DNA from: a virus
Virus record (IMG/VR): IMGVR_UViG_3300027901_000001
Direction: 5' to 3' (one strand)
DNA length: 64,000 nucleotides
A program made the position numbers and the translations under genes. The notes beneath the pieces are model-generated. The model did not search any database, was not told the DNA's origin, and saw only the letters and a list, made by a program, of their open reading frames with translations. The stretch's first letter is position 1. Every line of letters starts with the position of its first letter. Shown in pieces: positions 11,996-61,378 of the stretch.

Positions 11996-12628
11996 TCAGA
12001 CACCTTCCTGCTTCTCCTTCTCCAGCTCCTGCTCGTAGTCATCATCCAGGGCGTACGCCGCCTCTTCGTGATGACTGCCTTCGTACGGATTCTCACCCCT
12101 CAGCCAGGCGGTAGTCCAGTTTCCGACACCCATCTGGATGTAGCCCGTGAGCCAGAGGAGCCCGGCGAGCACGTAGGAGGCAGTCGACTGCCCCACAGCC
12201 GCAACTAAGGCCGCCAGCACAAAGGCCCGCAGCATGGAAGCCTCGTATTGCTCAACGTGCACATGCTCATGGAACTGGACCGGCCGCCACGGCTTCCCCC
12301 TCGGGTGCCGCTTTAGCGGCCCGTAAAAGATCGCGTGCCCTATGGTAGATCCTCCCCAAGGGTACTTTGTCCCGTCCGGCAGCTCCCGCAGATACCAACC
12401 CTTCGGCCAACGACCCTCGCTCACCGGCCAGGAGCCCTTTTTCATCTCACAGGTCAGCGACGGGCCGCCCGGACCACCAGGCTTGGCAGCCGGATTATCG
12501 CGAGGATTTTCCCACTCCAGCCTGGTACCCCAGAGCGCTCGAATCAACAGGATACCCCCCCATACCAGCAAGTCCCACGGCAGGCAGAGCAGGTACAGCA
12601 CCAGGTGGCGCTTCGCCTTCAGGTTCAT
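11996..12628 (-). CDS. Putative membrane-associated HExxH zinc metallopeptidase
   Basis: STIGHAIFY, FHEHVHVEQYE (HExxH), later HEEAAY third-ligand-like motif; hydrophobic segments. Confidence 0.55.
   Translation of the reverse strand: MNLKAKRHLVLYLLCLPWDLLVWGGILLIRALWGTRLEWENPRDNPAAKPGGPGGPSLTCEMKKGSWPVSEGRWPKGWYLRELPDGTKYPWGGSTIGHAIFYGPLKRHPRGKPWRPVQFHEHVHVEQYEASMLRAFVLAALVAAVGQSTASYVLAGLLWLTGYIQMGVGNWTTAWLRGENPYEGSHHEEAAYALDDDYEQELEKEKQEGV
12179..12192. repeat. Dispersed 14-bp palindrome, copy 1
   Basis: GGCAGTCGACTGCC, exact; inside the HExxH gene (encodes G-Q-S-T-A). Confidence 0.9.
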
Positions 12629-14805
12629 GCCGCCGCCTCCACACCAGTCAAGGCCACCGACCCCTTGGTAATGACGTACTTCTCGGTGATGATGAGATTC
12701 CCATCAGCATCGATCGGAACCACGTCTCCAACAGTTCCGACGATCTTGACCACCGAGTAAGCCACGCCATCTACGCCGCCTATACCGGTTTGAGGATTCG
12801 GCGAAATTACCGTATCCAGGTTGGCCACTCGAAGAGAAGCCCCAAAGGCACGCACACGCAGCAGATCATCAACCGCCTTCTCGACGTTCGTTAAAACCGT
12901 CTGCTTGACGAACCCGGCCTTTATTCCAACGGTAATTTCGATAATTGCCGGAACCAGATACGCGCCGCCGGAGACCACCTCCGGCACCTGGGTGACCTCT
13001 TTGCGTGCGTCCAGGTAGGCCCGTAGCGAGTTGATCAAAGCGACTGGGGGCTCTTGGAGGAAGCCGTCCACGTCCCTGGTAAGGATCGGCACCTGGACCA
13101 GATTAGCCTTGCAATCAGCCGACAGAAAACCGTCCACATGGTCAAAAATGTTTTGCAGCTCAGTCTCGATCGCATCCTCAAAGCCCGTAGTCACACGGTT
13201 GTTAATAACGATCACCTGGGCCTCGATGCTGTCGAGCAGCGGCTCCATGTCGTCCAGGCTGGTCTGGGCCGTCGTGTTCTCCTCCTCCAGCTCATCTGCC
13301 TGCGTCTTAATACTGGCCTGCTTGTTCACAACAGTGGTCGCCTCTCCGTCGGCGGCTGAAGCGTCGCCCGAGATGTTATCCGCTTCCGCATCGATCGAGT
13401 CGAAGTAAGCCTTGAGCGCGTTCTTGGTATCAGCAGTTAGCTGGTCCGGGGTATCCGTCGTGATGGCGTCCACGGCGGCCTTACCATCGGTCACGTGGGT
13501 CTTGATGTCGTTGGCGTCTACCCCAATCTGGGAAGTCCTGTTTTTGATGGACCGGGCGGCAGTAATAGCGTCATCAGCATCCGACTCGATCCCGGTTTTC
13601 TTGGTTGCGATGACCCCCGTTGCATCGTCCGCCGTGTCCCGCAGCTCGTAGATGGCCATCCGATCCGGCTCGATCTGGTCCGTCGCCGCCTGCACGTCAG
13701 AGGCCAGGGAATCTCGTATGACTCTAATGTTGTCCAAGTAAATCTGGAGCTGGATATCGTCTTCCGCGCTATGGGCCGCGAACGCCTGAGCAATAGCCAC
13801 TTGGCCCGCCAGCGCGTCCACATAAGCCGTGGAAAGCCCCTCGTAGTCGCCCCTGGTCACCGCCACATCGCGGGCGTGATAGAACCGCTGAGCATTGGTC
13901 CGAGCTTTCTCCAGGTCCTCCCGATCCGCGCCCGGCGTCGAGGGCAGCGGGTTGGTAATGTTCAACGGAATAATGGTGGCCGCCACGACGAGGGGATCCA
14001 CTACATCGGTAATAGTATCGCTCTGGACAGCTCCCGCCTTGCCCGAATTGGCAACGTATTCGGCCCGGATTTCATCCCCTGCCGCTGGAATGTTCCCGGC
14101 AATACCATCACCAAATCGCAGGGACGGCGGCTCATCGTTGTAATTCACTTCAAACTGGTCGGTCATATCAAAGGTAATGATCTCGGACTCCGACCAGGGA
14201 AAACCGGCTACCCGGCACACAAAGCCATTACCAGCGATGTATCGTCCGCGCTGAGGGTTGAGCCGGAAAATCTGATTCTTCGCGCCATTCGAGGAGAAGA
14301 ACTCTACCCGCGTTTCGCCCTCTCTCACCCCAACGGTGCGCGGCGGACTCAAGGGACCCTCTCCTATCGGAAAGGTAACCGCCTCTACCGCCTCGAAAAC
14401 CAGGTTGTTCGGCCCCTGGAACTTGAATCCGATGGGTATAGTCACAGCAAAGGTCTGAACCTCTGCAAGGGTCACTTCCAAATCCACCGCTGCCGACACG
14501 GCCGCCGACATCTTGTACCCGAGCTGGCGCGCCAGCCTGCTGATGGCCTTCCTGGTGCGGGCCGTCGCCAGGTAAGATTCCGTAGCTTGCCGGTCGATGT
14601 AGAAGCTCAGCGTCTCACAGGCCCAACTCACAATATCGATGAGCATCTGGCCGACGCCCGAAACCACGAAGTCGTTGAATTCCGTGACAAACAACGCCTG
14701 GATCCGGGCGATGATGTCATCGACGAACGTGAAGAAATCCTTGCCAGCAAACCTGGCCCGGTTGATTTTCGCCTGGGGGCTTTCTATCTGGATCGGGTCA
14801 GCCAT
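12625..14805 (-). CDS. Baseplate J / T4 gp6-like wedge protein with a coiled-coil insertion
   Basis: YIDRQATESYLATARTRKAISRLARQLGY, LRFGDGIAGNIP and RDVAVTRGDYE motifs of the gp6/J family. Confidence 0.85.
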   Translation of the reverse strand: MADPIQIESPQAKINRARFAGKDFFTFVDDIIARIQALFVTEFNDFVVSGVGQMLIDIVSWACETLSFYIDRQATESYLATARTRKAISRLARQLGYKMSAAVSAAVDLEVTLAEVQTFAVTIPIGFKFQGPNNLVFEAVEAVTFPIGEGPLSPPRTVGVREGETRVEFFSSNGAKNQIFRLNPQRGRYIAGNGFVCRVAGFPWSESEIITFDMTDQFEVNYNDEPPSLRFGDGIAGNIPAAGDEIRAEYVANSGKAGAVQSDTITDVVDPLVVAATIIPLNITNPLPSTPGADREDLEKARTNAQRFYHARDVAVTRGDYEGLSTAYVDALAGQVAIAQAFAAHSAEDDIQLQIYLDNIRVIRDSLASDVQAATDQIEPDRMAIYELRDTADDATGVIATKKTGIESDADDAITAARSIKNRTSQIGVDANDIKTHVTDGKAAVDAITTDTPDQLTADTKNALKAYFDSIDAEADNISGDASAADGEATTVVNKQASIKTQADELEEENTTAQTSLDDMEPLLDSIEAQVIVINNRVTTGFEDAIETELQNIFDHVDGFLSADCKANLVQVPILTRDVDGFLQEPPVALINSLRAYLDARKEVTQVPEVVSGGAYLVPAIIEITVGIKAGFVKQTVLTNVEKAVDDLLRVRAFGASLRVANLDTVISPNPQTGIGGVDGVAYSVVKIVGTVGDVVPIDADGNLIITEKYVITKGSVALTGVEAAA

Positions 14806-15191
14806 CAGGCCGCACTCCTGGTCGCCATATCGACCGCCGTTTGCCTAATTTCCCCGCGCACTCGATATACCACGATCACCACCACCGTATAGCCTTTTGC
14901 GGCCCGGTTCTCCTTCTGAAGGGTGATTACCCGCAGCGCCTGGATGCGGGGCTCTCCGGCCGCCAGAGCGCGCCGCACCTCGTGGTTAATGCTGGCCCGC
15001 ATCATGGGGCCGATGTTCTCGAACACGAAATTCATCGTGTCACTACCGGCATTCGGCCGCATAACCCGCTCCCCGCGCCGGGTCTGGAGAATGCGCCGGA
15101 TATTGTCCTCAATCGTCTGGTCATCCTCGCTCTTCGCCGGAAAGCCAGTGGTATTCTTGTTGAACGGAAATGCTATGCCACGAATCGTCAT
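14805..15191 (-). CDS. Baseplate wedge protein, gp25/gpW-like
   Basis: GIAFPF, IEDNIRRILQTRRGERVMRP, EPRI motifs. Confidence 0.85.
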   Translation of the reverse strand: MTIRGIAFPFNKNTTGFPAKSEDDQTIEDNIRRILQTRRGERVMRPNAGSDTMNFVFENIGPMMRASINHEVRRALAAGEPRIQALRVITLQKENRAAKGYTVVVIVVYRVRGEIRQTAVDMATRSAA

Positions 15192-22354: not shown

Positions 22355-23146
22355 CTATTGGATAATCTCGGACAGCCGTTCTATCCAACGGCTGCGCTCC
22401 TCTCCTTTCAACCTTCGCCTTCTGCGTCTCTTCTTTTTTTCACCCCCTATCGGCGTCACACGGCGCAATGGCGGCCCGAGGGGCACGTGGTACCGGGCGA
22501 TGTTCCCGGTCCCCATCACACCACTGGAGGCCCTGGTAGGCCCTACCTTGATAGGGGTCAAAACCTCTCCTGGAGGCGTCGCCTGCTCGGAGGCAGTCGA
22601 CTGCCTTTGGGGAATCGGCCGAATGGCCGTTATCTTGCACTTGTTGATCTTCTCAATCCGATTCTTTGCCGTCTTCTCGTGCGCCTCGCACACTGGAATA
22701 TATGCACGCCCATCTGCCCACTCGTAAGACTTGGTGGCCGGGCTATCACAGTACTTGCACTTCTGAGACTTCGTGGCTTTGCCCTCGACGAGGGACTCGG
22801 ATTTCGGGGGCTCTGGACCACCTGCGGCCGGGCGCGTGGGCGCACGCGGGGGCTGCTTCTTGGCGGTCTCGTCCTCCCCCTCTTTTCCCCCTTTGCCGGG
22901 CTCAGGAGCCGCTTTACTGCCCGGACGCGCCGGAGGCACCCTATCCCCCTTCCGCCGCTTCTTCTTGTCCTTGCTGGGCCTCCTCTTGCCGTACAGAGCG
23001 TCCTGCTCCTCCCCCTCCTCATCGCCCTGCATATTCAGGAAAAACACCGACAACGGAACGAGCTTCACCGCCGGAGCCGTCGGACCGTACATCCCGATGG
23101 TCCCGATGGGAGCGCTGACAGCGCGTGTGCTCATTCCGTACGTCAT
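22355..23146 (-). CDS. Low-complexity basic protein with a CxxC...CxxH zinc-finger-like segment
   Basis: KCKYCDSPATKSYEWADGRAYIPVCEAH; Pro/Lys/Arg-rich flanks. Confidence 0.55.
   Translation of the reverse strand: MTYGMSTRAVSAPIGTIGMYGPTAPAVKLVPLSVFFLNMQGDEEGEEQDALYGKRRPSKDKKKRRKGDRVPPARPGSKAAPEPGKGGKEGEDETAKKQPPRAPTRPAAGGPEPPKSESLVEGKATKSQKCKYCDSPATKSYEWADGRAYIPVCEAHEKTAKNRIEKINKCKITAIRPIPQRQSTASEQATPPGEVLTPIKVGPTRASSGVMGTGNIARYHVPLGPPLRRVTPIGGEKKKRRRRRRLKGEERSRWIERLSEIIQ
22592..22605. repeat. Dispersed 14-bp palindrome, copy 2
   Basis: GGCAGTCGACTGCC, exact; extends to 16 bp (A...T); inside a CDS (R-Q-S-T-A). Confidence 0.9.
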
Positions 23147-25606: not shown

Positions 25607-26464
25607 TCATGCCTCCAGGCTCTTCGCTGCGTCATACCCCTCCTTCTGAATCTTTACCGCCTCATGGGGATCGAAGTGCAGCGGATCGTCATTCAGCAAA
25701 TGCGCGGCATGAATTATCCGGAGCTTGATCTTCTTTTTGCCCTCGATCTCTTCGTACTCCAGCAGCCGGGTCAGAAGCTGGGCGTACTTCGCGTCTACCC
25801 AGGTAAGCTGATCACTCATCACGTCGATAGAACGTATGGCCACATCTGGCCAATCCGGGTTACGCTCGAACTTCGCCGTCGGCTTGGGCGGATGGCAGAT
25901 TGACACATCGATTTCATCACAGCCCAGATCGATAAGGGCCTTCACCGGCGTCACGTGCCGCACGCCGCCATCGGTCCAGAGCTGGCCGTCGGTCTGAATG
26001 GGCTCGAAGAAAGCCGGGTAGCTGGCCGATGCCAAGACCGCCTCCGCCAACGGGCTGTAGGTCTCATCAAACAGCCGGTAGCTGGTGGTATCCAGCGACA
26101 CCGCGCCGATCCGGAGCTTCTTGCCGGATGCCCGGACCCTTTCCTCGTCCAGCGTCTTCTTCACCAATTCTTGAAGGGGCTTGCTATTGAGCGCGCTCGA
26201 CTTCCAAATGCTGACCTTGCCAAACAGAAACCAGCTCTTCCAGATGTCGGGGTCCTGAATCGGCGTGAACAGGTCCTTTAGATCCTGGGCGGCCTGCATC
26301 TCCTCACCCGTCTTATACTGAGTCAGGAAGGAGCCCACCAGTGCGCCCACACTCACGCCCGCATAGGCATCGTACTCGGTCCGCAGGTCACCCAGAAGGT
26401 GGTCAACCACTCCCACGTGGAACTGACCCCTAGACCCCCCACCGCTGAGCGCAAGTCCCCGCAT
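25607..26464 (-). CDS. Patatin-like phospholipase
   Basis: LALSGGGSRG, GVSVG (GxSxG), ASASYP and DGG motifs all intact; start at the TGATG overlap. Confidence 0.9.
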   Translation of the reverse strand: MRGLALSGGGSRGQFHVGVVDHLLGDLRTEYDAYAGVSVGALVGSFLTQYKTGEEMQAAQDLKDLFTPIQDPDIWKSWFLFGKVSIWKSSALNSKPLQELVKKTLDEERVRASGKKLRIGAVSLDTTSYRLFDETYSPLAEAVLASASYPAFFEPIQTDGQLWTDGGVRHVTPVKALIDLGCDEIDVSICHPPKPTAKFERNPDWPDVAIRSIDVMSDQLTWVDAKYAQLLTRLLEYEEIEGKKKIKLRIIHAAHLLNDDPLHFDPHEAVKIQKEGYDAAKSLEA

Positions 26465-27102
26465 CACTTCCAAAGCCGATAAGCAACCGTGATCTTCGGC
26501 TGCGTCCCTTCCGTCGCCACTGAATGGTATTTGGCTCTAAGTTTGAACCCAGTAGGAATGGAGGTGGACCCCTCAGAAACAGCCCCAACCTTCCCCGACG
26601 GCGGAATATAAACTGTTTCACCATACTGTCCCACAACGGCATCAGACCCATTCAAAACGAAAAGTTCAACGTAGTCCCCGTCGGTAAAATCTTTTACTTC
26701 CGCCAAAGCCCCTTGCAAAGCCATCGCTTCGGGCAGCGCATAGTCGTTATTAGTGTCGGTGTTCAGAGCAGCGTCGAACTGCACACCCTTAATAAAAAGA
26801 TGCTTGTTCTTGTTATCGGTAGGACACGCCCTGACGTAGGACACCACATCATCCGGCAACGGGAGGCCCGAGTGATTGCCGATAATGCCCCCACACGGAT
26901 TCGTGGTGTCTCCATCGAGAAGAGTCTTGTCGGCCGCAGGCAAGTCAGCCTTGAACTGAACTGTGAGGGCATCGCCGTTCACATTGACACCATCTAACGC
27001 AATAGTGATGGCGCTCAAACCAATTTCCTGGATAAGCCTGTCCGAATCGACCTTCCCGGAAATCACGTCCTCGCTGATGGTGTAATTAAAAATGCTGGCC
27101 AT
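26464..27102 (-). CDS. Hypothetical virion (decoration-like) protein
   Basis: Beta-rich ORF translationally coupled at both ends. Confidence 0.55.
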   Translation of the reverse strand: MASIFNYTISEDVISGKVDSDRLIQEIGLSAITIALDGVNVNGDALTVQFKADLPAADKTLLDGDTTNPCGGIIGNHSGLPLPDDVVSYVRACPTDNKNKHLFIKGVQFDAALNTDTNNDYALPEAMALQGALAEVKDFTDGDYVELFVLNGSDAVVGQYGETVYIPPSGKVGAVSEGSTSIPTGFKLRAKYHSVATEGTQPKITVAYRLWK

Positions 27103-28754: not shown

Positions 28755-29482
28755 CAGACTCTCCACCTGACGATAAAGTAACCCTGCACGGCCGTAGTCA
28801 CGTTACCGCCCGACTGGTTGCGAGCAGCTAACACGCTGTGCTGAGCGAAATCAGCATTTACAGTATTGTCTGCTCCTTTCTGAGCTGCCGACGCCAGCGT
28901 TGCAATAGAAGCCCCATCGTCCATAATCTCAAAGGTCGCCGCATCCGTGTCGTCCCTGGTATAGCCTATCGCCACAACGGTTCCGTTGAACCTCGCGTCG
29001 TATCCATTGGTCGCTGAAAACGTCAGCCCCTCGGTACCTCCATAATAGCTGCCTGCGGCCGTGTCCTTCTTGGCTCCAAAAACAAATGTTTGAGCCTCAA
29101 CCGACAACCACTTTCCGCGCACCGAATCGTACTCCATCGTCATACGGAGTACGGTATTGAAATAGAGATCGCCGTTCTGCGGAGCCGGAGCCACCGGATC
29201 AACTGCACCCGGAGGATAGATTCTGATGGCAACTGGCTCCGTATTATCAACTTTCTGCCAGACCGTCCCATTGAAAATGGCCCAATCCCCTACCTGCCAA
29301 TCGGTGATGCCATCCAGATTGGTAGTCCCCGCAACCGACACCACATAGTAGTGCCCCTGAACACCAATACCACTGGCCAGCGCCGGATTGTTAGCCGCTG
29401 CATCCCAGGTCCCTTTATATGTAACGGCACCCAAGGCGGCACCTGGATCAGGTTGTAGACGACCGTTAATATAAAGAGGCAC
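28754..29482 (-). CDS. Decoration-like protein with Trp-rich module and C-terminal jelly-roll-like domain
   Basis: YKGTWDA...GHYYVVSVAG...DWQVGDWAIFNGTVWQKVDN module; N-terminus MPLYINGR. Confidence 0.55.
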   Translation of the reverse strand: MPLYINGRLQPDPGAALGAVTYKGTWDAAANNPALASGIGVQGHYYVVSVAGTTNLDGITDWQVGDWAIFNGTVWQKVDNTEPVAIRIYPPGAVDPVAPAPQNGDLYFNTVLRMTMEYDSVRGKWLSVEAQTFVFGAKKDTAAGSYYGGTEGLTFSATNGYDARFNGTVVAIGYTRDDTDAATFEIMDDGASIATLASAAQKGADNTVNADFAQHSVLAARNQSGGNVTTAVQGYFIVRWRV

Positions 29483-38722: not shown

Positions 38723-39079
38723 CTACTGTGCCTCCAAGATGGCATCCACCATTTCGCCCTTGTTCATCGCAGCGTCCAGCTCCGCTCCCATCTTGGCACC
38801 GAGCGTGCCCAGCTCAGCCTTGGTCATCTTCTCCAGGTCTGCCTTGGAGAGCTTCGGAGCAGCCTTCTTCGCAGCAACCCTCTTCTTGGCCGCCGCTTCA
38901 GCAGCCTTCTGCTCTTTCTCCATGTCGACCTGTTCAACAAAACCCATGCCGACATACCTGGCCAGACGGGAATCTGGATAAATCACGCCGTCCATGAGCT
39001 TCTTGTCAGCACGGCCGACCTGCACGGTCAGGTCCTTGCCAACGTACTTCGGTGCCTTCCTGTATCCGATTTTCGCCAT
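38723..39079 (-). CDS. Protein with a C-terminal Rho_N/HeH-like helical motif
   Basis: DLEKMTKAELGTLGAKMGAELDAAMNKGEMVDAILEAQ. Confidence 0.55.
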   Translation of the reverse strand: MAKIGYRKAPKYVGKDLTVQVGRADKKLMDGVIYPDSRLARYVGMGFVEQVDMEKEQKAAEAAAKKRVAAKKAAPKLSKADLEKMTKAELGTLGAKMGAELDAAMNKGEMVDAILEAQ

Positions 39080-39092: not shown

Positions 39093-39106
39093 GGCAGTCG
39101 ACTGCC
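39093..39106. repeat. Dispersed 14-bp palindrome, copy 3 (intergenic)
   Basis: GGCAGTCGACTGCC, exact; abuts the GGAGG RBS of the 38723-39079 gene. Confidence 0.9.
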
Positions 39107-39123
39107 TCAGTAAGAATATCCTA

Positions 39124-39714
39124 TTACCGCTTGAGCCGCTTCTTCAATTCCGCCTTGATCGCCTTGGCCTCCGGCCCTCGAAAGGTCGCGGCATTGGCAA
39201 GGAAATAGTTAACGATGTGTGAGCCCGGATCCATCATGTACTGCGCCTTATAAGGGTCCATCTCATCGAAGGTCGCCATCGCATCCAGATACGGCTTGGC
39301 CGCATAGTTGACCTTCTTCCAGGTACGGCGAATCACCCGCGCCAGTTCCCCCAAGGTCATCTGACTGTAGTTCTGAGCCAGTTCCTGAAGCTGTCTCAGC
39401 TCCGCCTTGACTTCCTGAATCCGGCGCTCGCGCACGTCGGGGAACAGTGATGTGGTAAATTCCAGCCGCGCCAGCTCTTCCTCGACCTCCTCCTTGCTCC
39501 GCACGCATTCTCCTGTACCTGGACCGAGGCCGGTACCACGAAACGGCCCTTTGCCACCACCCGGACCAAGCCCACGACCACCCGCAGGCTTGGCAGTCCG
39601 CAGTCCTCTACCTCCCGGCGTCTTACGCTTTCCCCGACCCATGCCCGCAACTTCTTCCAGTCGCATCTCCCGGTCGATATCCGGCGCACCATAAAACTCA
39701 AATCTTCCGTGCAT
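39124..39714 (-). CDS. Hypothetical head-region protein
   Basis: Gly-rich N-terminus; C-terminal module W.KVNYAAKPYLDAM...YFLANAATFRG..AKAIKAELK. Confidence 0.6.
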   Translation of the reverse strand: MHGRFEFYGAPDIDREMRLEEVAGMGRGKRKTPGGRGLRTAKPAGGRGLGPGGGKGPFRGTGLGPGTGECVRSKEEVEEELARLEFTTSLFPDVRERRIQEVKAELRQLQELAQNYSQMTLGELARVIRRTWKKVNYAAKPYLDAMATFDEMDPYKAQYMMDPGSHIVNYFLANAATFRGPEAKAIKAELKKRLKR

Positions 39715-39723
39715 GGCTCTCCC

Positions 39724-40524
39724 TCACAGTATCCGTATCTTGTTCGAGGCGGGTTTCGCAGGGCTCCCTGTTTTCGCATCTACTAGCCGACGCGATTTCC
39801 CCTTCCGCAAAAGCTGAGACAGCTCCGCTTTCATCGCAAAAATCCACTCTTTTTCATCGTCCTTGTCGGTCAGCCACGGCGTCGAGATTTCGTACCGAAG
39901 ACCTCTCTCTCCTGCCTCCAGTTTGGCAACCAACATCACCTCGTCCTTGGGAGCCATCCCTGGACGCTTGGGGCCGCGACGGCTTTCCCATTTCTTAGAA
40001 ACGACCTTTACATCTTTCGGCCACACCTCGTAAGTGAGCGGCCTATCCACGGCCTCTGCCTGCTGTTCACCCCTTTGAGAGACCTTTCCGAATGTCCTCA
40101 GTTTGCGATTGTGGTAGATGGCCATCGGCTTCAGCTTCTTGCCACCAGCCGTCATAAAATCTGAAATCCATCTGGGATCATACGCCGTGTACTTGGAGGT
40201 GGCTGACATCACGCCCTTCTCCTGCCGTACGTCCCGCCATGCAGTGGTCTTTATCGCGGGCAGATTCCACCCTTTCACCACCATCCAAAAGGGCGTGTAG
40301 TACGACATGATGGTCGCCTCGTTCCGGCCACGCTTCGGAACGAAATCTACGGTGTGCTCACTGACCGAAGAAAGGTACCCTTCCACCTTGTCGATGGCTC
40401 CCATCGGCGACGAAAAGTAGATGGTGACCTTCTCACCCTTGACGGCCGGTTTACGGCGGCCTCCCATGATGGCGAGGCTGCGGCGTTCTTGAAGCGCCGC
40501 TTCAAGCTGTGCCGAAAAGGTCAT
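39724..40524 (-). CDS. Hypothetical protein, candidate internal head protein
   Basis: Start reassigned to ATG 40524 behind GGAGGTGAGG; N-terminus MTFSAQLEAALQE. Confidence 0.6.
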   Translation of the reverse strand: MTFSAQLEAALQERRSLAIMGGRRKPAVKGEKVTIYFSSPMGAIDKVEGYLSSVSEHTVDFVPKRGRNEATIMSYYTPFWMVVKGWNLPAIKTTAWRDVRQEKGVMSATSKYTAYDPRWISDFMTAGGKKLKPMAIYHNRKLRTFGKVSQRGEQQAEAVDRPLTYEVWPKDVKVVSKKWESRRGPKRPGMAPKDEVMLVAKLEAGERGLRYEISTPWLTDKDDEKEWIFAMKAELSQLLRKGKSRRLVDAKTGSPAKPASNKIRIL

Positions 40525-40543
40525 TCCCTGCCTCACCTCCGTT

Positions 40544-40578
40544 AAAGCAAAACGGGAAGGGCAGATGCACCTTCCCGT
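40544..40578 (-). terminator. Intrinsic terminator after the major capsid gene
   Basis: ACGGGAAGG-9 nt loop-CCTTCCCGT followed by TTTGCTTT on the minus strand. Confidence 0.65.
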
Positions 40579-40619
40579 CTCGCGTACGCGCCCGCCCGCG
40601 TAGACGGGCTTCTGAGGGC

Positions 40620-47799: not shown

Positions 47800-49905
47800 T
47801 TATCCTTTAATAAATGGCATCGGCTTCTTGCTGGGATCGTCCGGTCGTGTGCCCACAATACCCCCTTCAGAAGGGGTTTTGCTACTTTCCTGCCGAATCA
47901 GCGTCTGGCCGTCCGTTACCCAGGAGTGATCCTCTACCTCTATTGTGTCCCTATCTGTCGGGCCTGCCTGAATCGGTACCGGCATACTCGGTGCTCGTTT
48001 GGTAAGATTGTACACCACCGCCGCCAATGAATCGGCCACATCTTTCGTGCCAGGTTTGCCATCGGGACCAATCTTCGGGTGATCAATCTTAAAGCCCTTG
48101 CCGCGCAGCTTCGGCACGCGCTGGAGCTGCGTGATCTCCCGCTGGCACCAGGTGTGCAGGTGCATCCGCAGCCGTGACTCGTACATGGTGGTTTTTAATA
48201 CATCGTATGGCTCCGTGGTCTTGTCCACCGACAGCACCTCTGCCTCAATACCGCGCTTACGAAGCTGCTGAATGGCATCTGCCGACTGGTAAGAGTCCAT
48301 CGTCACATACCGAATATTGAAGCCGTGCTCGGTAAACTGGTAAACGATGGCACGCACATCACTGAGCAGGATCTCGTCCCCCGGCGGCGGCACGACCCTC
48401 AGCACCAGGTCGGTCTCGATAAGGGGAGCCAGCTCGCTGTACTCTTCCATCGCTTTGTCGCGCCGTACCACTTCCGTCCAGCCGGAAATGTGGGCGATGG
48501 TCAGGCCGGTACAATCGCCACTCAACGATGGGTCGATGTGCGCGTACCGGATGGCGTCAGGATGCCGGATCGGTCGCCAAGCCACCTCGGTATAACCACC
48601 AGGCAACCGCCGCGAAAAGCTCTTAGCAATCTTTCCCCAGTGGATATCCAAAGGCGTGCTAGCCAGCCAGTTCTCCTGAATCTCTCCGGGGTCCGGACCG
48701 CCCATCGGACACACCAAAGTATCATCTGCGGCCTCGTACACCATCTCGGTACGGTGCATATACGGACTGACCGCCATCGTGGCATAGCCCGCGATATCCC
48801 GAATTGCGCCGTCCAGGTCACGCTCGAAATCCCCCTTGTACTCCATCGGAACCTCAATAATTTGAAGTTCCAGCTTGCGAAATTTCTCCTCCTCCTCCGG
48901 ATCGCCGCTCAGGATACGCGAATGGTGCTTCTCGTTGCCGACCACAACCTTGAAGGTCTCGGCCGTAAAGCTGCCCTTAGCCTTCACGTCCCAAGTGGCA
49001 TACTCCCGGACGAAAAAGTGCGGGTCCGCTTGCTCCCGCGCCTGCTCGATCCGCTTCTCAACGAAAGCCGTCGGCCGCTCCTTTGAGGAGGCCAGCATCA
49101 TCAGGCCAGGCAGTCGACCGACCTTCAGGAACCGCGACTTCATGCGCCGCAGAATCGACTTGTAGATAGCCTCGCCCTTGTCGGTGATGACCTCCCGGCC
49201 CATTCGGTCAATTTCCTTGACCGTACCCATGAAGCTCGTCTCATCGATGAACCCAGCAAAGGCGTTCATGCCGATGATGGCCGATGAACCGGTCGAGCCC
49301 GCGACCACCATGATCTGCTTCGGGAACCGAATCTCCAGTAGGCTTGGAGCCGCTTTGGAGGGAAACTTCTCCTTAAAATACCGGGAATGGGTAATCTTTC
49401 CCAGCAGCTCGTTGACGGGCACACGCCGGGCCACGCGCTCGGTAACTGACAGCATGGCCAGGTAAATATGGGAGCCCGGAGCGATGCCATACGCGCTCTG
49501 CGGGTCCCGCAAACAGGACATCTGGTACAGAACATAGCTCATCGCCGTGGTGGCAAAGAACGTCTTTCCCCAGCCCAGACTGCCACCCAGGGCCGCCTCG
49601 TGGTAGTCGCCCTCGAACAGCTCCACCAGGTCGTCCTTGAGCTGATCCCAAAGCGAACCGCCAGTTTCCCCCAAAAAGAACGGATCCGTCAGGTAGGTCC
49701 GGATGTCGGCCGGGGCCGTCTCATACTCAATGTTGGCTATCTGCTCATAGTCGTCCTGCTCGCCCGCTTGGAGCTGTTTGTACATCTCCATCAGGGCCTT
49801 GCGTTCCGATTCGGGTAATTGGCCAATATCGCCCGCCAGAACCTGAACTTCCTCCTCGGGAGTCCGAACAGACCGTGGCCGCCCCTCCTTGTCGAGTATC
49901 GGCAC
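47800..49905 (-). CDS. terL: Terminase large subunit
   Basis: Walker A GGSLGWGKT, Walker B GFIDETSFM, nuclease HIDPSLSGD, YVTMDSYQS, KDVADSLA. Confidence 0.9.
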   Translation of the reverse strand: MPILDKEGRPRSVRTPEEEVQVLAGDIGQLPESERKALMEMYKQLQAGEQDDYEQIANIEYETAPADIRTYLTDPFFLGETGGSLWDQLKDDLVELFEGDYHEAALGGSLGWGKTFFATTAMSYVLYQMSCLRDPQSAYGIAPGSHIYLAMLSVTERVARRVPVNELLGKITHSRYFKEKFPSKAAPSLLEIRFPKQIMVVAGSTGSSAIIGMNAFAGFIDETSFMGTVKEIDRMGREVITDKGEAIYKSILRRMKSRFLKVGRLPGLMMLASSKERPTAFVEKRIEQAREQADPHFFVREYATWDVKAKGSFTAETFKVVVGNEKHHSRILSGDPEEEEKFRKLELQIIEVPMEYKGDFERDLDGAIRDIAGYATMAVSPYMHRTEMVYEAADDTLVCPMGGPDPGEIQENWLASTPLDIHWGKIAKSFSRRLPGGYTEVAWRPIRHPDAIRYAHIDPSLSGDCTGLTIAHISGWTEVVRRDKAMEEYSELAPLIETDLVLRVVPPPGDEILLSDVRAIVYQFTEHGFNIRYVTMDSYQSADAIQQLRKRGIEAEVLSVDKTTEPYDVLKTTMYESRLRMHLHTWCQREITQLQRVPKLRGKGFKIDHPKIGPDGKPGTKDVADSLAAVVYNLTKRAPSMPVPIQAGPTDRDTIEVEDHSWVTDGQTLIRQESSKTPSEGGIVGTRPDDPSKKPMPFIKG

Positions 49906-49913: not shown

Positions 49914-50639
49914 CTATTCTTCAGAAGCAGGCCGTGGAAGGGGCAACGTCTCCGAGGGCAACGGGAATCTCGCCTTACCGAATCTGGTCATCCTCTCCAA
50001 CAGAGACATGATCCGGTGCCGGGACTCTGGATTGCTCAACACCTCCATCGTCTCCTGACTGTAATTCTTGATGCTCAGGCTCATCTCGATGCCTTCCGGC
50101 TTCCCCTGGTTCAGCTTTGCCTGAGCTTGGATACGCTTCCAGAGCGTCTCATCCATGCTATCGAGCGCTCGCGTGGTAATATCGCTGAAGGCTCCGCTCA
50201 GGGCCTCCAGCTCCAGCATCCGGTCACACCGATCTCGCTTCACCAGGTAGGACGCCTCCAGCTCCAACATATCCTTAACACCGCCTTCGGCGCGTTTGTA
50301 AAGGGACCTGGCTACTCTGCCAGGAGTCGCTGGCAATCGCCGGTATTTAATCATCGCCCGCAGGTCATCATCTTCGCCCCAGTCAGTGGACTGGGGCGCT
50401 CCCCACCAACCGTCTGTCTCTTGCTTCTGACGCCGCCGGACTGTCAGGGCATTGGCCAAGCTCTCAGGATTGATGTCCGTCAGCTCGCCTTTATCGTGCT
50501 GGATAAATTGCGCCACGATCGAAGAAGGAACGTTCTCGATGAGCATCTCATCGATCTCGCCCAGGAACGGTAACGCCTCAACGAGCTTCCCGACCTTTTG
50601 CTTGGCGCGTGGCCGTGCTGGTCGCTTGGCTGTGGCCAT
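49914..50639 (-). CDS. Candidate terminase small subunit
   Basis: Helical ORF immediately upstream of terL; no diagnostic motif, call is positional. Confidence 0.45.
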   Translation of the reverse strand: MATAKRPARPRAKQKVGKLVEALPFLGEIDEMLIENVPSSIVAQFIQHDKGELTDINPESLANALTVRRRQKQETDGWWGAPQSTDWGEDDDLRAMIKYRRLPATPGRVARSLYKRAEGGVKDMLELEASYLVKRDRCDRMLELEALSGAFSDITTRALDSMDETLWKRIQAQAKLNQGKPEGIEMSLSIKNYSQETMEVLSNPESRHRIMSLLERMTRFGKARFPLPSETLPLPRPASEE

Positions 50640-50696: not shown

Positions 50697-50710
50697 TGCA
50701 GTCGACTGCC
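50697..50710. repeat. Dispersed 14-bp palindrome, copy 4 (13/14, intergenic)
   Basis: tGCAGTCGACTGCC; shares TGAGGCAGTCGACTGC (minus strand) with copy 3; abuts a stop codon upstream of the candidate terS. Confidence 0.85.
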
Positions 50711-50953
50711 TCATGTGGCCGCCAGCGCTTCCAACTTGCCCGCTATTGCCATCAGCTCGGCCCGGAGCTGGTTCTCAGGAATGGCGTCCAGGTCGGCGAT
50801 CGACACAGCAACCGGAATCCCCCCTGGGTAAACCGGGCTCTCACCGCCCCCTGGATGCGCCTTCATTGGACACTCGATGTCCTTAATCCAGCTCTGAAGC
50901 TGCTCAACGGTCAGCCTTAATTCCGCCAGGACGTGTTCTCTGCTCACCTGCAT
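50711..50953 (-). CDS. Small hypothetical protein
   Basis: 80-aa ORF with a TGATG overlap. Confidence 0.55.
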   Translation of the reverse strand: MQVSREHVLAELRLTVEQLQSWIKDIECPMKAHPGGGESPVYPGGIPVAVSIADLDAIPENQLRAELMAIAGKLEALAAT

Positions 50954-52541: not shown

Positions 52542-53316
52542 GAAATTTCTCCTTCTCCTTGTGCATCAATTTTGGGTCGAAACTGACCTTATGCTCCACC
52601 ACTCCTTCCTCCAGGGTCTTGGCCCCAGGGTTCACATACAACAACCGCCCGCGCCGACATTTACTCGGCCCCATGTACCACTGAAGCTGGGTGACATCGG
52701 CTGGCCACGGTGCCGTCCGCACCCGATCCAGGTTACCAGTCGTCTTTATATCGAGAAACTCGGGGTAGTACGCCGGGAGCTTCAGCAGACCGTCCGTACG
52801 GCCCCGAACCTTTAGATGAGGGTCGTGCACCCAGGGCTCCACGTAATGAAACGGCTCCATCGGATGGTTCTTGAACTCGCACTGCGAGCACTCGTCCGGC
52901 ATCTTCACAGAGGTCTGCGGCGTCACCCAGGTCGCCCGGTCCGCTATCCAGAAAGGCGGCTCCGTTTCAAAATCCGTCCCGTGCACGTGCCCGCACGCGG
53001 GGCACCGCCAGCCGCCCAGAAGCCAGCCCAGCGGCCCCAGCCACAGCTCCTGGATAACCGCGTGCATGGCCGTCCCCTTGTCCATACGCCAACGACCCAG
53101 GGCGTCTACCTCATCCACCATCGGCACCCTGAGCCGGTTAACCATCACCATTGCGCGGGGACACAAGACGGGAGCTTTACTTATGCTGAACCAGGTGTCC
53201 GGCCCCGGTGGGGGCACCTCCCGGCTGCTGTACAGGTTCTCCAACAAGAGCGGCAGCAGAAACTCGCTGTCCTGCCGCTGCGCCCTCACGTCATCGAGTA
53301 CATCTGCAATACCCAT
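52402..53316 (-). CDS. Cas4-like / PD-(D/E)xK exonuclease
   Basis: CPR, GTAMHAVIQ, RGRTDGLL, LDIKTT, QLQWYM, C-terminal C..C.C cluster. Confidence 0.8.
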   Translation of the reverse strand: MGIADVLDDVRAQRQDSEFLLPLLLENLYSSREVPPPGPDTWFSISKAPVLCPRAMVMVNRLRVPMVDEVDALGRWRMDKGTAMHAVIQELWLGPLGWLLGGWRCPACGHVHGTDFETEPPFWIADRATWVTPQTSVKMPDECSQCEFKNHPMEPFHYVEPWVHDPHLKVRGRTDGLLKLPAYYPEFLDIKTTGNLDRVRTAPWPADVTQLQWYMGPSKCRRGRLLYVNPGAKTLEEGVVEHKVSFDPKLMHKEKEKFRGLREALADKTKPIPDCPYGGKSPYGECNCVEVAMLWASNGGRPIT

Positions 53317-53690
53317 CAGTCCGCCTTCCTCTTCTTAAGCAGTCCGAGCCGCTCCATCACCTTCCGGGTGTGGTTGTCCTTCTTCTCAGCATACTGCTCG
53401 GCCAGAATTCTGGCACTCGTCAGCCACAGCGCCGTCGTATGCAGAGCCATCAAGAGTTTGTCCGACTTGTCAGCGTCCGCCTTCAACGCCTCTTTCATAG
53501 CCCACTCCTGGAGGGCCGCCAGGGGCCTGCCAACGCCGTGCCCTTTCATCTCGTCCAGCTCACTCACGATAATTTTCGACACGCGCTCCCAGGGCTCACC
53601 CACAAGCTCATAAGCATTCCAATCCGGCTGCTTTCCTTTGGAAATCTTCTGCACAACCTTCTGGAGGCTATCCGATACAACGGCGCTCAC
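53316..53690 (-). CDS. Hypothetical helical protein
   Basis: Start set at the GTGA overlap at 53690. Confidence 0.5.
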   Translation of the reverse strand: MSAVVSDSLQKVVQKISKGKQPDWNAYELVGEPWERVSKIIVSELDEMKGHGVGRPLAALQEWAMKEALKADADKSDKLLMALHTTALWLTSARILAEQYAEKKDNHTRKVMERLGLLKKRKAD

Positions 53691-54130
53691 AAATCCAGCC
53701 CCTTCTCCCCAAGGGCCTCCAGCATCGCCTGGAAGGTCATCAACGGCACCGCAATCCAATCTGTGCTAGCCGGTTCTTCACCACGATGCCGGGCTACCCC
53801 GCCTACTATGTGCTCATCAAACTGGACAGCGAGCGCCGGGTGCCTCCCGGAGGCCAGCGCCTCATTGGTAATCTTTGTCAGGTGCGAAACCTCCAGACGC
53901 AAGCTCAATTTCCCCGTCCGTTTGCACTCGACCAGCAGCGGGAACCCTTCATGCTCGCGTTTCACATCGCCCTTGAGCGAACCAAACGCGCCGGACCCCG
54001 GCTGCCGTCGGCCGCCCAGGGCCTTGGCAACCTTTTTCTCCTGCTTCCGGGGCCGCCGGTGATAGGACTCGCGCCGCTTCTGCTCCCCCTCATCTTGAAG
54101 AAGAGGGGGAACCTTTCCCTTCGAGATCAT
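53687..54130 (-). CDS. Hjc-type Holliday junction resolvase-like PD-(D/E)xK nuclease
   Basis: QEKKVAKALGGRRQPGSGA..KGDV...LVECK. Confidence 0.75.
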   Translation of the reverse strand: MISKGKVPPLLQDEGEQKRRESYHRRPRKQEKKVAKALGGRRQPGSGAFGSLKGDVKREHEGFPLLVECKRTGKLSLRLEVSHLTKITNEALASGRHPALAVQFDEHIVGGVARHRGEEPASTDWIAVPLMTFQAMLEALGEKGLDL

Positions 54131-55413: not shown

Positions 55414-55749
55414 CTAGATAGGCCCCGTCTTTCCTTTGTGTCCCCGTGCTTCCGCAACCTCTTTCCGAACGCGGTCCTCGCAGAATTGGGCAGCCCATTT
55501 ATCAGCCTTGGCTATATCCGACAGGTAGCAGGGCACTTCCACACTCACGTCAATCCTGGCCGACTCGTAGTTCCCCTGGTTCAGTGTGAGGCCGTATCCC
55601 CGTCGCACAACAGCGGGCGTGGTCTCGAACTTCTTGACCTCGACCACTTCATCTTCTGCCGTGATACAGGTCTCGGTACCGTCACCGTGGACAAATCGGT
55701 TGTCCACTCTGACAATCACCAGTCGCTCCTGCTCTTTCGCCTTCGCCAT
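55414..55749 (-). CDS. Hypothetical protein
   Basis: TLNQGNYESARIDVSV motif; start set at the TAATG overlap at 55749. Confidence 0.6.
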   Translation of the reverse strand: MAKAKEQERLVIVRVDNRFVHGDGTETCITAEDEVVEVKKFETTPAVVRRGYGLTLNQGNYESARIDVSVEVPCYLSDIAKADKWAAQFCEDRVRKEVAEARGHKGKTGPI

Positions 55750-56288
55750 TATGATGCCTTCTCCTTCACTACCGTCGCCTTCAACGCCGGTTTGAGTTTT
55801 TTCCTTTGATAGTTCACGGGCACACCAAGCTCGCGCCACCTCCTCTTGATCTCGTGATACATCGCCTCATCCACAGGAAACAGGCGGCGCTTTTCACCGA
55901 TCACGTCCTTCACCACCTGCATCATCTCGATGGTGTAGTACCGGAAACCTCTCCTATCCCGGTACGGCGTAATCGGCAGGAGCTTAGGCTTCGTCTTCTC
56001 CCAGTGGTTGATAGACTGCACACTACGACCCAGAAACAAGGCAAAGAAACCAACGGATAGAAGCTGAATCTTCCCTCCCTGAACATCGAATTCCCGAGGA
56101 ACCTGATACCGAGGCACCCTTGCCGGAACCTCCTTCTCGCTCCGCTTCCTGTCCCGGTAATTCTGGGAAGCCTTCAACACACGCTCCCGATATTCTGGAT
56201 CTGTGTGATACCGCTTCTTCCTTTTCCTGTTTATTTTGCGCTTGTTCTTCTCGTAATAGTCCTCGAAGTAACCGGGTGGGTTCGCCAT
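55749..56288 (-). CDS. MerR-like winged-HTH DNA-binding protein
   Basis: FALFLGRSVQSINHWEK...RDRRGFRYYT; basic N-terminal helix; AAAGGAGG RBS. Confidence 0.65.
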   Translation of the reverse strand: MANPPGYFEDYYEKNKRKINRKRKKRYHTDPEYRERVLKASQNYRDRKRSEKEVPARVPRYQVPREFDVQGGKIQLLSVGFFALFLGRSVQSINHWEKTKPKLLPITPYRDRRGFRYYTIEMMQVVKDVIGEKRRLFPVDEAMYHEIKRRWRELGVPVNYQRKKLKPALKATVVKEKAS

Positions 56289-56347: not shown

Positions 56348-58167
56348 GCACCGCCAACCTTGGCCTTCACCGAACGATAGAATTCCATCCGGCTTTTTCG
56401 ACGCTTCTGGGCCAACAAGATATTTCTGTCCACGATGTCAAAAACCATTGTCCTGGGCTTAGCCTTGCACTCCCCGGCACGCCACGAGCAATAGTGCTCG
56501 CACATCTCCGGCGTCGATTCTCCGCCTTCGGACACCGGTACGCAGAACCGACGCACACGGCCAAAAGCCTGCTCCGCGTCGCTAACCGGCGAGGCAAATC
56601 CCAGGGTATCTACCGCTGGCTGGTCGATGCCCTCGCCGCACATTTGGTAGGTAACCCACATGACCCTGGCGCGTTCGGCCTCGTACAGCTCTGCCTCAGT
56701 CACCGGCCGCTTCTTCTCGACCTTTTTCTGGGCGATCCCGAACTCCTTGGCGATTTTGAACAAGAGAGAATCCGCCGCCAGCACAATCTTTTCCCTCTTC
56801 TCTCCCCACTGCTCCGGGTTTATGCCGTTAGGCGGCTCTGGATTCCACTCGTACAGGCCGTCCAGATCAAGCCACCGGTCTTTTTCCAGCAAGATGTGTC
56901 TGCGACCGTTCTCATCCTTCTCACCCCTCAAAGCCCGGCGACGCTTGAAGCTCTCGAAAATGGTCTTAATGGCGCGCTCACGGCCTTCGTCATCCATCGT
57001 CCAATAGCCCTTCATCAGACGCGGGGGCTGCTCACCGGTAAACCACTCACCGACGTAGAAGCCCGTGGTAACATCCTTCAGGTCCTCCCCCTCGCAGGCT
57101 TCCCGCAACATCTGGTCCAGTTCCCGAAGATGCTCCAGACGCTCGGACAATACCATCAGCTTCCTCTGATGAGGTGATCTCAGGGCCTTCACAATCTCGG
57201 AGATGATCACCCTGTTGCGCCAGGTCAGCCTGGTCAGGATGTTGATGACAATCGGGATGGCGGCATTCTTCTCCCGCATGATGCCCGGCCCTCTGGACCT
57301 GCTCTCAACCATCCGCACGTTCGGAATCGGCATTTTAGTCTCGGCGGAATACCGGATCTGGCCAATGTGCCACCAGAACACATCATCCGCGCCATCGTTA
57401 CGCCGGGGCGTCGCCGACAGCCCGAGCCGGAACTGGGACCCGAACATCTTTGGAATCGGAGACCAGGTAGGCGCGCCGATTCGGTGCACCTCATCGACCA
57501 CCAGGATGCCGGGCCAATTGTAGAACTCCTGCGGATACCGGCGCTTGCCATTCTGCCCCTCCAGGGCAAGCGACTGGGCCATCGCTACCACAATATCCCG
57601 GTCCTCGAACTGGCACTTGCTCTCCTGGACAATGCCTACCCGCGCCCCCGGCAGAAACTTCTCGACGCGCTGCTGCCACTGCACCATCAGACGCTCTTTG
57701 TGGACAATCACCACTGCCGTCATCCCGAGCCGGTGAACGATCGACAACGCCGTGTTGGTCTTCCCGAAGCCGGGATCGGCCCGGACAATCGCCCCCAGGT
57801 GCTTCCCGACGGTCATCGGGTTTACCGCCTGGACGCCCTCAAACCAATCCAGAACGGCCTCGACAACGCGGCCCTGCTCCGCGTACACCCCCTCATGGAG
57901 AATCCGGCTTTCGTACTCCACAAAGTCCCCGCAGGCCATGTCCCACACGATGTCGTGCTCCTGCTGGGCCGTGGCGAAGAAGTAGTCCCTCGGAATGCCG
58001 AACTCGGTGGGGGTCTCCGACCAGCACTCGATGGGCGTCGGCGGCGTATCATCGAAAGCCAGCGACTTGCGCGGCACGATACGGAGCGCCTTCTTGAAGT
58101 AGGCAACACCCTCTGCTCCCAGGTCGGTCTTCGGGAGCCACGCCATTCCTGCGATCCGTACTTTCAT
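56338..58167 (-). CDS. Superfamily 2 DExH helicase (UvsW/Res-like)
   Basis: ADPGFGKT, VVDEVH, LGLSATP, TYQMCGEGID, EQAFGRVRR. Confidence 0.9.
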   Translation of the reverse strand: MKVRIAGMAWLPKTDLGAEGVAYFKKALRIVPRKSLAFDDTPPTPIECWSETPTEFGIPRDYFFATAQQEHDIVWDMACGDFVEYESRILHEGVYAEQGRVVEAVLDWFEGVQAVNPMTVGKHLGAIVRADPGFGKTNTALSIVHRLGMTAVVIVHKERLMVQWQQRVEKFLPGARVGIVQESKCQFEDRDIVVAMAQSLALEGQNGKRRYPQEFYNWPGILVVDEVHRIGAPTWSPIPKMFGSQFRLGLSATPRRNDGADDVFWWHIGQIRYSAETKMPIPNVRMVESRSRGPGIMREKNAAIPIVINILTRLTWRNRVIISEIVKALRSPHQRKLMVLSERLEHLRELDQMLREACEGEDLKDVTTGFYVGEWFTGEQPPRLMKGYWTMDDEGRERAIKTIFESFKRRRALRGEKDENGRRHILLEKDRWLDLDGLYEWNPEPPNGINPEQWGEKREKIVLAADSLLFKIAKEFGIAQKKVEKKRPVTEAELYEAERARVMWVTYQMCGEGIDQPAVDTLGFASPVSDAEQAFGRVRRFCVPVSEGGESTPEMCEHYCSWRAGECKAKPRTMVFDIVDRNILLAQKRRKSRMEFYRSVKAKVGGAIS

Positions 58168-58182
58168 GTTTCACGTGAAACA
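58167..58182. promoter_or_regulatory. parS centromere-like site (ParB-binding consensus)
   Basis: TGTTTCACGTGAAACA, a perfect 16-bp palindrome identical to the bacterial parS consensus; its last base is the A of the helicase ATG. Confidence 0.8.
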
Positions 58183-58837: not shown

Positions 58838-58856
58838 GACGTTTTATAGAAAACTA

Positions 58857-59645: not shown

Positions 59646-59714
59646 ATTGTTCCTCCTTGTACGTGTTCAACCAGAACAGCTTTGCAACGTTTGCAATCTG
59701 CAAACAGAATAACG

Positions 59715-59743
59715 ATTATTATAGCATATAAGCCCTTTGTCAA
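59715..59743 (-). promoter_or_regulatory. Strong sigma70-like promoter of the SSB gene
   Basis: Perfect extended -10 TGCTATAAT (59726-59718). TTGACA at 59743-59738 lies 17 bp from an alternative AATAAT. Confidence 0.65.
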
Positions 59744-60930: not shown

Positions 60931-60931
60931 G

Positions 60932-61378
60932 CTAGCCCGTCATCACACCGGCAGGGTCGAGCTGGCTTTCCTGAACGTTCCACCAGGGCTGAAAACCATC
61001 GTCCACCGCCTGGCACTTCTCCGGGTCGAGCACACGGATCAAAAGGCCATCGGCCGCCGGACCACTCGAATACTTGGGGTGCTTGAACCGCATATCCCCC
61101 GGCAGCCGCGTTCCGTGCTTCCGGCTGAACATCACCACCTCTCCCAGTTTAATATCCGGCATAGGCAGTCGACTGCCATCCGGCCCTATCCGACCGGGAC
61201 CGATGGCGATCACTTCTCCGTACCGCCACTCACTTGCCCGGTACCTGCCGAACTGGGTTTTACTATCGCCGTAGTAGATACCGCCGCTCGTCATATCCGG
61301 CTGACCATAATCGCACACGAAAACGAAATCGTGCAGGGGCCGTATATTGAACCCCTCCACCATAATCCCCTTCTCCAT
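60932..61378 (-). CDS. groES: GroES-like co-chaperonin (T4 gp31 analogue)
   Basis: IRPLHDFVFV, TSGGIY, GEVIAIGPG, KLGEVVMF. Confidence 0.85.
   Translation of the reverse strand: MEKGIMVEGFNIRPLHDFVFVCDYGQPDMTSGGIYYGDSKTQFGRYRASEWRYGEVIAIGPGRIGPDGSRLPMPDIKLGEVVMFSRKHGTRLPGDMRFKHPKYSSGPAADGLLIRVLDPEKCQAVDDGFQPWWNVQESQLDPAGVMTG
61164..61177. repeat. Dispersed 14-bp palindrome, copy 5
   Basis: GGCAGTCGACTGCC, exact; inside groES in a different frame (G-S-R-L-P). Confidence 0.9.

Follow-up and report, generated by a model that had tools for sequence, protein, structure and literature searches.

Dispersed copies of a 14-bp palindrome in a T4-like phage genome and its relatives: a conserved set of duplex-DNA sites, most likely for docking of a dimeric phage protein

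Copies of one 14-bp palindrome, GGCAGTCGACTGCC, are dispersed over a stretch of viral DNA of 64,000 nucleotides (IMG/VR virus record IMGVR_UViG_3300027901_000001), in the following called the window. It lies within the 191,670-bp metagenomic contig ENA ERZ27275860 k141_4294888, in which the record position equals 94905 - p for window position p. Judged from the genes in the window, the source phage is contractile-tailed, distantly related to T4 and lytic in appearance. The coding strand of every real gene in the window is the minus strand, resulting in one long co-directional gene array. Structural genes encode tape measure, baseplate wedge, sheath, major head protein, prohead protease and portal. 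A replication and recombination block comprises the genes for a RecA/UvsX-like protein, an Hjc-like resolvase, a PD-(D/E)XK exonuclease, a SNF2-type helicase, a primase, Cpn10 and a DnaB-like helicase. A cultured relative was not found in the phage collection searched (0 DNA matches, capsid protein identity below 60%). Five relatives from IMG/VR, G1 to G5 (G2 is LNFM01000122.1), have capsid proteins of 76-84% identity, and two of the five are complete. Closer relatives were obtained by protein searches.

Four exact copies of the palindrome start at window positions 12179, 22592, 39093 and 61164, and a fifth copy at 50697 (TGCAG...) deviates in one base. The core of the site is GTCGAC, the recognition site of SalI. 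Site 1 (12179..12192, exact) is located inside the minus-strand gene 11996-12628 and read in the frame G-Q-S-T-A, using the rare codon ACT (fraction 0.13). Site 2 (22592..22605, exact), inside the gene 22355-23146, is read as R-Q-S-T-A. It is the sole window copy forming a perfect 16-bp palindrome, AGGCAGTCGACTGCCT; at site 1, the A/T flank of this longer palindrome is present on one side only. Site 3 (39093..39106, exact) is intergenic and fills the gap from the stop codon region to the ribosome-binding site GGGAGGA of the gene 38723-39079, which directly adjoins the end of the site. Site 4 (50697..50710), with its single mismatch in the outermost base, directly follows the TGA stop of an 80-aa open reading frame (ORF, 50711-50953) and stands 58 nt before the gene 49914-50639. 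On the gene strand, both intergenic window copies read TGA-GGCAGTCGACTGC. Site 5 (61164..61177, exact) is part of the Cpn10 (groES-like) gene 60932-61378, in the frame G-S-R-L-P. The sequence shared among the copies ends at a core of 14-16 bp, and the flanks are unrelated. The copies, the frames of the three genic ones and the stop codon and ribosome-binding site next to the intergenic ones agree with a first-pass annotation of the window made from the letters alone. A half-copy, GGCAGTCGACCGAC (49109..49122, inside the gene 47800-49905), has two mismatches and only its left half intact. It is possibly a chance match or a decayed copy and was left out of the site count, about 0.5 such matches being expected by chance.

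The palindrome is by far the commonest repeated 12-14-mer in the window. Six matches with up to two mismatches were counted against 0.47 expected from dinucleotide shuffles, and none of 100 shuffles reached six, confirming an excess over chance. Shuffling of synonymous codons in 72 genes gave 0.01 exact copies on average, compared with three seen. All three coding copies are spelled with rare codons (ACT 0.13, AGT 0.11, CGA 0.08). Orthologous proteins align across each of them with neither gap nor frameshift, and the residues found there differ: HAVA or HWMA in G2 and G3 instead of QSTA at site 1, TTTA or TTSA in relatives instead of QSTA at site 2, and GIIRP or GIRMP instead of GSRLP at site 5. 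From the gapless alignments, the codon shuffle and the differing residues it follows that the word arose in existing genes by substitution, under selection at the DNA level. The initial proposal that selection acts on the DNA and not on the peptide is borne out by the synonymous shuffle and by the other residues at the same places in relatives.

Nine further copies have been verified beyond the window, at window coordinates 69830, -2741, -4121, -14575, -20360, -29456, -33171, -38335 and -44329. The part of the contig covered by the count, record positions 18907-141787, was reached by exact-protein look-ups. In total, 14 sites are present in 123 kb, ten of them exact, and the wider count proposed in the first-pass annotation finds the motif dispersed over the same contig outside the window as well. 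The base outside the half-site is A in 18 of 28 cases, which indicates the 16-bp palindrome as the preferred site. The spacing of 10-16 kb described at first holds inside the window but not over the 123 kb, where the gaps range from 1.4 to 16.5 kb. The sites are nevertheless spread more evenly than expected by chance: the coefficient of variation of the gaps is 0.49, compared with 0.96 under random placement (P = 0.004 over 123 kb), and the spacing within the window alone is even as well (P = 0.005). Nine of the sites lie inside ORFs and five between genes, with intergenic DNA amounting to 3.6% of the window (P = 1e-4). Each of the five intergenic sites occupies the few bases from a stop codon to the next Shine-Dalgarno sequence or start codon.

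The sites are also kept at orthologous positions, a check that had been suggested together with the motif. Ga0452208_000102 (JGI 3300041082; 163,313 bp, 63% GC, about 75-77% DNA identity), of which 38 kb were read (loci L246 and L247), holds the word at the orthologous places of sites 2, 3, 4 and 5, plus one extra copy. The orthologue of site 2 is GGCAaTCGACTGCC (L247:21155), and the same sequence is found at the place of site 5 in its Cpn10 gene. The counterpart of site 4, GGCAGTCGAtTGCC, again stands after a stop codon, TAA (L246:10643). Site 3 is retained with 14 of 14 bases and in the same layout of stop codon, motif and Shine-Dalgarno sequence in three more contigs, Ga0309772_1004542, ERZ27256778 k141_2059169 and ERZ27271454 k119_546734 (L248, L249 and L250; 48-52% GC, 70-74% DNA identity), and with 13 of 14 bases in L247. 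The flanks of site 3 diverge, and the left flanks of the contigs L248 to L250 cannot be aligned. Simple arithmetic on the measured identities gives a chance probability of about 1e-4 for each set, Ga0452208_000102 and the three site-3 contigs. In IMG/VR, the 14-mer was found on only 30 contigs, one copy each. The gene content of the slot from the major head gene to site 3 (window 39107-40619 and its equivalent in L247, L248, L249 and L250) varies. Genes for proteins of 310 and 196 aa occupy it in the source phage, and in the relatives it holds 120 and 510 aa, 620 and 90 aa, or none; site 3 forms the fixed downstream edge of this variable slot.

No exact copy is present in G1 to G5. The motif is absent from the places of sites 3 and 4 in these five genomes, and G2 to G5 have no dispersed palindromes of their own. 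In addition, no copy with up to one mismatch was detected in 58 loci related by their major capsid protein (704 kb). The Cpn10 gene of G1 contains two intact halves parted by one inserted codon (GGCAGTC-GCC-GACTGCC), so that the site is older than the split from G1 and was destroyed later in G1. The word GGCA-N6-TGCC occurs 13 times in G1 (80.8 kb) compared with 2.5 expected, with a CG centre in most cases, in mixed frames and at uneven spacing. The sole copy compared, at 28867 and close to the counterpart of the window-69830 site, does not occupy the corresponding position. These words are possibly decayed copies, and they were not used as evidence.

The relation of the motif to restriction differs among the carriers. 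GTCGAC is not avoided in the source phage (44 compared with 36-51 expected). It has been purged from G1 (0 versus 27-52 expected), G4 (1 versus 28-69) and G5 (0 versus 21-46) and likewise from Ga0452208_000102 (0 in 38 kb versus 12-28). All five copies in the latter phage carry one identical transition, G to A at position 5 or the mirror change C to T at position 10, which removes the SalI site from every copy. This escape variant, AGGCAATCGACTGCCT, is one asymmetric word, found one way in three copies and the other way in two. Orientation is therefore immaterial, which is what a reader with two equal halves on duplex DNA would predict and is in line with the two-fold symmetric recognition assumed in the first-pass annotation. 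In the Cpn10 gene of Ga0452208_000102, the variant changes Ser to Asn, although silent alternatives at position 6 or 9 (AGT to AGC, CGA to CGN) would equally abolish the SalI site. The DNA word is hence more constrained than the protein there, and the putative reader seems to tolerate a change at position 5/10 better than at positions 6-9. The source phage encodes an MT-A70 adenine methyltransferase (L251:7488-8720) which has no homologue in G1 to G5.

The palindrome thus forms a genuine set of duplex-DNA sites that extends over the genome, is conserved in the clade and is subject to strong purifying selection. Most likely, a dimeric phage protein whose role concerns the whole chromosome docks at the copies. 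The assignment as a double-stranded DNA binding site for a phage-encoded, two-fold symmetric protein acting genome-wide is made with moderate confidence from the pattern of the sites. According to this model, the phage would maintain about one site per 8 kb over its genome of about 192 kb, more evenly spread than by chance, and would write the sites where the cost is lowest, in the few bases that separate a stop codon from the following ribosome-binding site or in variable protein stretches. The sites may serve to load or nucleate the protein, which would then cover, organize or mark the whole phage chromosome. Loading of KorB from O_B on plasmid RK2, of ParB from parS and of Noc from NBS sites are precedents. 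Such chromosome-wide loading seems more likely than a control of single promoters. Given that the carriers span 48-64% GC and are not alike in restriction avoidance, they probably infect different hosts, and the binder probably travels with the phage, being phage-encoded. A more elaborate version, here termed self-tagging, is put forward only tentatively: the phage protein would load at the evenly spaced palindromes and coat or organize the chromosome for protection, silencing or packaging choice, and the lineage under SalI-type restriction would have kept all its sites via one escape variant, with site and reader co-evolving.

Two described systems resemble the motif most in kind. KorB of plasmid RK2 recognizes O_B, a near-perfect short palindrome present in about a dozen copies per replicon, some at promoters and some kilobases off; the KorB dimer loads at O_B and slides, resulting in replicon-wide silencing and partition (PMC11790492). 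Shared with the phage are near-identical palindromes all over the replicon (14 sites in 123 kb, ten exact, five intergenic and nine genic). The sequence differs (TTTAGCSGCTAAA), the O_B replicon is a plasmid and not a lytic-type phage, and most phage copies are genic. Cluster O mycobacteriophages carry a 17-bp dyad, TGTTCGG-N3-CCGAACA, in more than 30 invariant copies between and inside ORFs, which is conserved in the cluster and has no function assigned (PMC4351075). About two thirds of these copies are intergenic or at gene starts, and a link to restriction avoidance has not been reported (PMC4351075). An invariant inverted repeat, conserved among related phages inside and between ORFs, is common to both cases. 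Invariant palindromes dispersed in this manner are known from a few phage groups, Cluster O being one example, and no function has been assigned to them. Unlike the source phage, the Cluster O carriers are Mycobacterium siphoviruses, and their repeat has another sequence and a free spacer of 3 bp. The first-pass view of an undescribed system therefore stands for the sequence and the clade, but not for the kind, which has precedents in the Cluster O repeats and the KorB operators. New are the sequence, the clade, the even spacing and the interplay with restriction avoidance.

More distant parallels are known from bacterial chromosomes and temperate phages. Noc-NBS, SlmA-SBS and MatP-matS are based on 12-14-bp palindromes in coding DNA, which are read by a dimer and mark or organize a chromosome region. 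Unlike the motif here, these are host systems for division or chromosome layout with degenerate sites confined to chromosome regions. L5 stoperators and P1 C1 operators represent many copies of one repressor site across a phage genome, active outside the immunity region. The stoperators and C1 operators are asymmetric sites between genes that follow the direction of transcription, and they occur in temperate phages, whereas the motif described here is symmetric and mostly coding, and its phage has no sign of lysogeny. An identity with parS or NBS was rejected, neither consensus being shared (parS, TGTTNCACGTGAAACA; NBS, ATTTCCCGGGAAAT). As a separate observation, a perfect copy of the canonical bacterial parS, TGTTTCACGTGAAACA, is located at window 58167-58182, in the gap that precedes the SNF2-type helicase gene and directly after a run of G. 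A second perfect parS lies 76 kb away in the same genome (L254:10874-10889, window coordinate -18194). A copy with one mismatch is present at the orthologous place in the 163-kb relative (L246:3197), and G2 and G3 contain one each, also with one mismatch.

The proteins encoded at 55749, 51918 and 50953, initially named as candidate binders, have orthologues in all five motif-free relatives, including the two complete genomes, and are not supported as binders. The protein 55749-56288 (179 aa) contains a MerR-type helix-turn-helix (HTH); some homologues carry PF13411, and it matches the PHROG 'transcriptional regulator'. Motif-free genomes, however, encode almost the same recognition helix (RSVQ[SA][IL]NHW). 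The 80-aa ORF (50711-50953, minus strand), located just upstream of a 241-aa gene, a 701-aa gene and the portal gene, is shared by all relatives. It has no Pfam match; its N-terminus, judged by eye, resembles the winged-helix DNA-binding domain of lambda Nu1. The helix region of this protein is much different between two motif-bearing phages. A 124-aa protein (53316-53759) was rejected as a lineage-specific binder, with weak syntenic homologues in G2, G4 and G5. Better placed as candidate binders are three proteins from a lineage-specific region beyond the window, none of which has a homologue in G1 to G5. A 98-aa HTH protein (L256:17345-17641), of which three homologues were found in total, is encoded divergently from an operon whose Shine-Dalgarno sequence adjoins a motif copy. 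The same operon includes the gene for a 295-aa J-domain protein (L256:18912-19799), and a 75-aa Arc-like ribbon-helix-helix (RHH) protein is encoded in the same region (L256:268-495). Sequence searches with four candidate binders against solved structures gave no match. The only ParB-type match in the 123 kb is a 116-aa protein with ParB_N alone (L251:1235-1585, E = 1.5e-4), which is weak (22.2 bits versus the Pfam cut-off of 26.3). Among the scanned proteins, Pfam and PHROGs gave neither a KorB homologue nor a clamp-locking partner of the KorA/TrbA type.

Several findings weigh against a dimeric docking protein. G1 to G5 and the 58 other loci, with a similar identity of the capsid protein, live without the motif. 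Ten of the 14 sites are letter-perfect, which is stricter than in most operator sets and would also fit a nuclease or a recombinase. The intergenic excess is compatible with cheap placement but also with a link to gene expression. For the 98-aa HTH gene, which neighbours the copy in the sole divergent promoter region, a homologue could not be detected on the 163-kb relative. The 123 kb that were read also yielded no HTH-containing homologue of ParB or KorB.

Two rival explanations are live. Unlikely, but the stronger of the two, is a set of dispersed operators for a global repressor or an elongation roadblock, comparable to the L5 stoperators and P1 C1 operators, which would silence or time many operons. 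Such a function would account for the intergenic excess and for copies that are wedged in where a stop codon is followed by a ribosome-binding site, and the lineage-specific region encodes the 75-aa Arc-like RHH protein. One copy stands about 40 nt downstream of a promoter-like stretch, TTGACA/TATAAATA, in the only divergent region, where it adjoins the GGAGGA of a 337-aa gene opposite the 98-aa HTH gene. Nine of the 14 sites, however, are within ORFs, and the nearest gene start can be several hundred bases away. A sigma-70-like promoter was not found at site 3, and that at site 4 is weak. Moreover, even spacing is unexpected for promoter-linked sites, stoperators are asymmetric and oriented in contrast to the symmetric sites here, and the phage is lytic-looking and T4-like with a single co-directional array. 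An L5-type stoperator in the strict sense was rejected because of the perfect palindrome and the nine copies inside ORFs. The consensus of sigma-54 promoters is GG-N10-GC; a promoter of this class was rejected on inspection of the motif, which has the spacing GG-N9-GC.

Recognition by a cutting, nicking or recombining phage enzyme is rather improbable. A restriction-like or homing-type nuclease, a terminase with many pac sites or a recombinase would provide ends for recombination-dependent replication or packaging. The near-absolute conservation, the perfect palindrome and the type II-like 6-bp core are in agreement with an enzyme, and the even spacing would suit replication or packaging starts. 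A recombination module is present in the window (RecA/UvsX-like protein, Hjc-like resolvase, PD-(D/E)XK exonuclease), and one copy separates the 80-aa ORF from the 241-aa gene, upstream of the 701-aa and portal genes, a frequent location of pac. Against this, a link of any nuclease to the motif was not found. Motif-free relatives have conserved the recombination genes as well as the 80-aa and 241-aa proteins, and the helix region of the 80-aa protein diverges between the two motif-bearing phages. Double-strand cuts at every site would be costly, and the contig assembly runs unbroken across all of them.

An RNA hairpin with a 5-bp stem and a UCGA loop, which would serve as a signal for processing, stability or translation, is very improbable. 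All genes are on one strand, and the palindrome is identical in RNA; four of the five window sites have a predicted hairpin, and several intergenic copies in the source phage and four related contigs stand at the 5' edge of a Shine-Dalgarno sequence. Yet folding is favoured only weakly (z = -1.5 to -1.8), site 4 is unfolded, and most copies are within ORFs. The loop is as invariant as the stem, and compensatory changes are absent. Among the five Ga0452208_000102 copies, three yield an A.C mismatch in the stem and two a G.U pair, so the mismatching orientation is the commoner one. Hallmarks of an intrinsic terminator or a structured RNA, namely a stable hairpin followed by a T-run, covariation or a match to an Rfam family, were not found.

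Mutational drive, by which a sequence-specific methyltransferase or a repair bias pushes near-matches to the word, is even harder to sustain. Such a drive has been proposed for the HIP1 palindromes of cyanobacteria. The MT-A70 gene of the source phage, absent from G1 to G5, and the lack of GTCGAC avoidance would be compatible with it. But methyltransferase sites comprise 4-8 bp and not 14-16 bp, GTCGAC itself is not enriched, and the excess of half-sites derives wholly from the palindromes. The drive would also leave the even spacing and the 13/14 retention in the GTCGAC-purging relative unexplained. A Chi-like function of the half-site was rejected as well: GGCAGTC/GACTGCC occurs 16 times versus 6.8 expected, ten of the 16 stem from the palindromes themselves, and half-sites alone are not enriched.

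An origin of the copies as adapter or assembly artefact or as a tiny mobile insert, suggested by the 14-mer at contig ends in two unrelated metagenome-assembled genomes (MAGs) and by the half-word GGCAGTC, which resembles the end of an old 454 primer, is practically negligible, as reading frames and protein alignments are continuous through all coding copies, the copy flanks match no adapter, the same sites recur in independent assemblies from other samples and sequencing centres, and the MAG matches consist of one longer unrelated repeat and one contig overlap. A REP/MITE-like mobile mini-element was rejected, since coding copies have no indels and the similarity stops at the 14-16-bp core. 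In a motif scan of species genomes, the only multi-hit genome among the matches listed was the Bacteriovoracales MAG APA_bin_12 (L149, L150, L185 and L194). The 14-mer is part of a longer repeat on these four contigs, on three of them within about 110 bases of the contig end. The repeat has 45-51% GC and no phage similarity and is probably an unrelated multi-copy element.

Other features of the genome were observed in passing. Unusual cargo for a tailed phage comprises a patatin-like phospholipase encoded in the tail gene block (window 25607-26473), a radical-SAM protein encoded among the distal tail genes (window 8427-9383) and a 678-aa RelA/SpoT-domain protein encoded just beyond the window (L252:18385-20421). 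A further dyad, TGTC-N6-GACA, occurs seven times in the window (305, 5712, 10254, 17381, 38446, 41357 and 55701) compared with an expectation of 0.6 derived from other spacings, with differing centres and contexts that seem unrelated. In G2, a promoter-like word, CTTGACAGACGC, is found at 11 places (e.g. 14689, 150035 and 182415), followed after about 11 bases by a TAnnAT-like box. These are probably early promoters, and the source phage has no equivalent repeat in the window.

The kept positions, the even spacing and the escape variant are three additions that make the question of dispersed palindromes testable. Site positions are kept across phages that are 25-30% apart in DNA sequence and 16 points apart in GC content. 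In the GTCGAC-purging lineage, a natural mutagenesis indicates which positions the reader tolerates, and the pair of wild-type and escape sites provides probes for the protein. If the reader is indeed a chromosome-coating or self-marking protein, it would represent a new layer of genome organization in large lytic phages.

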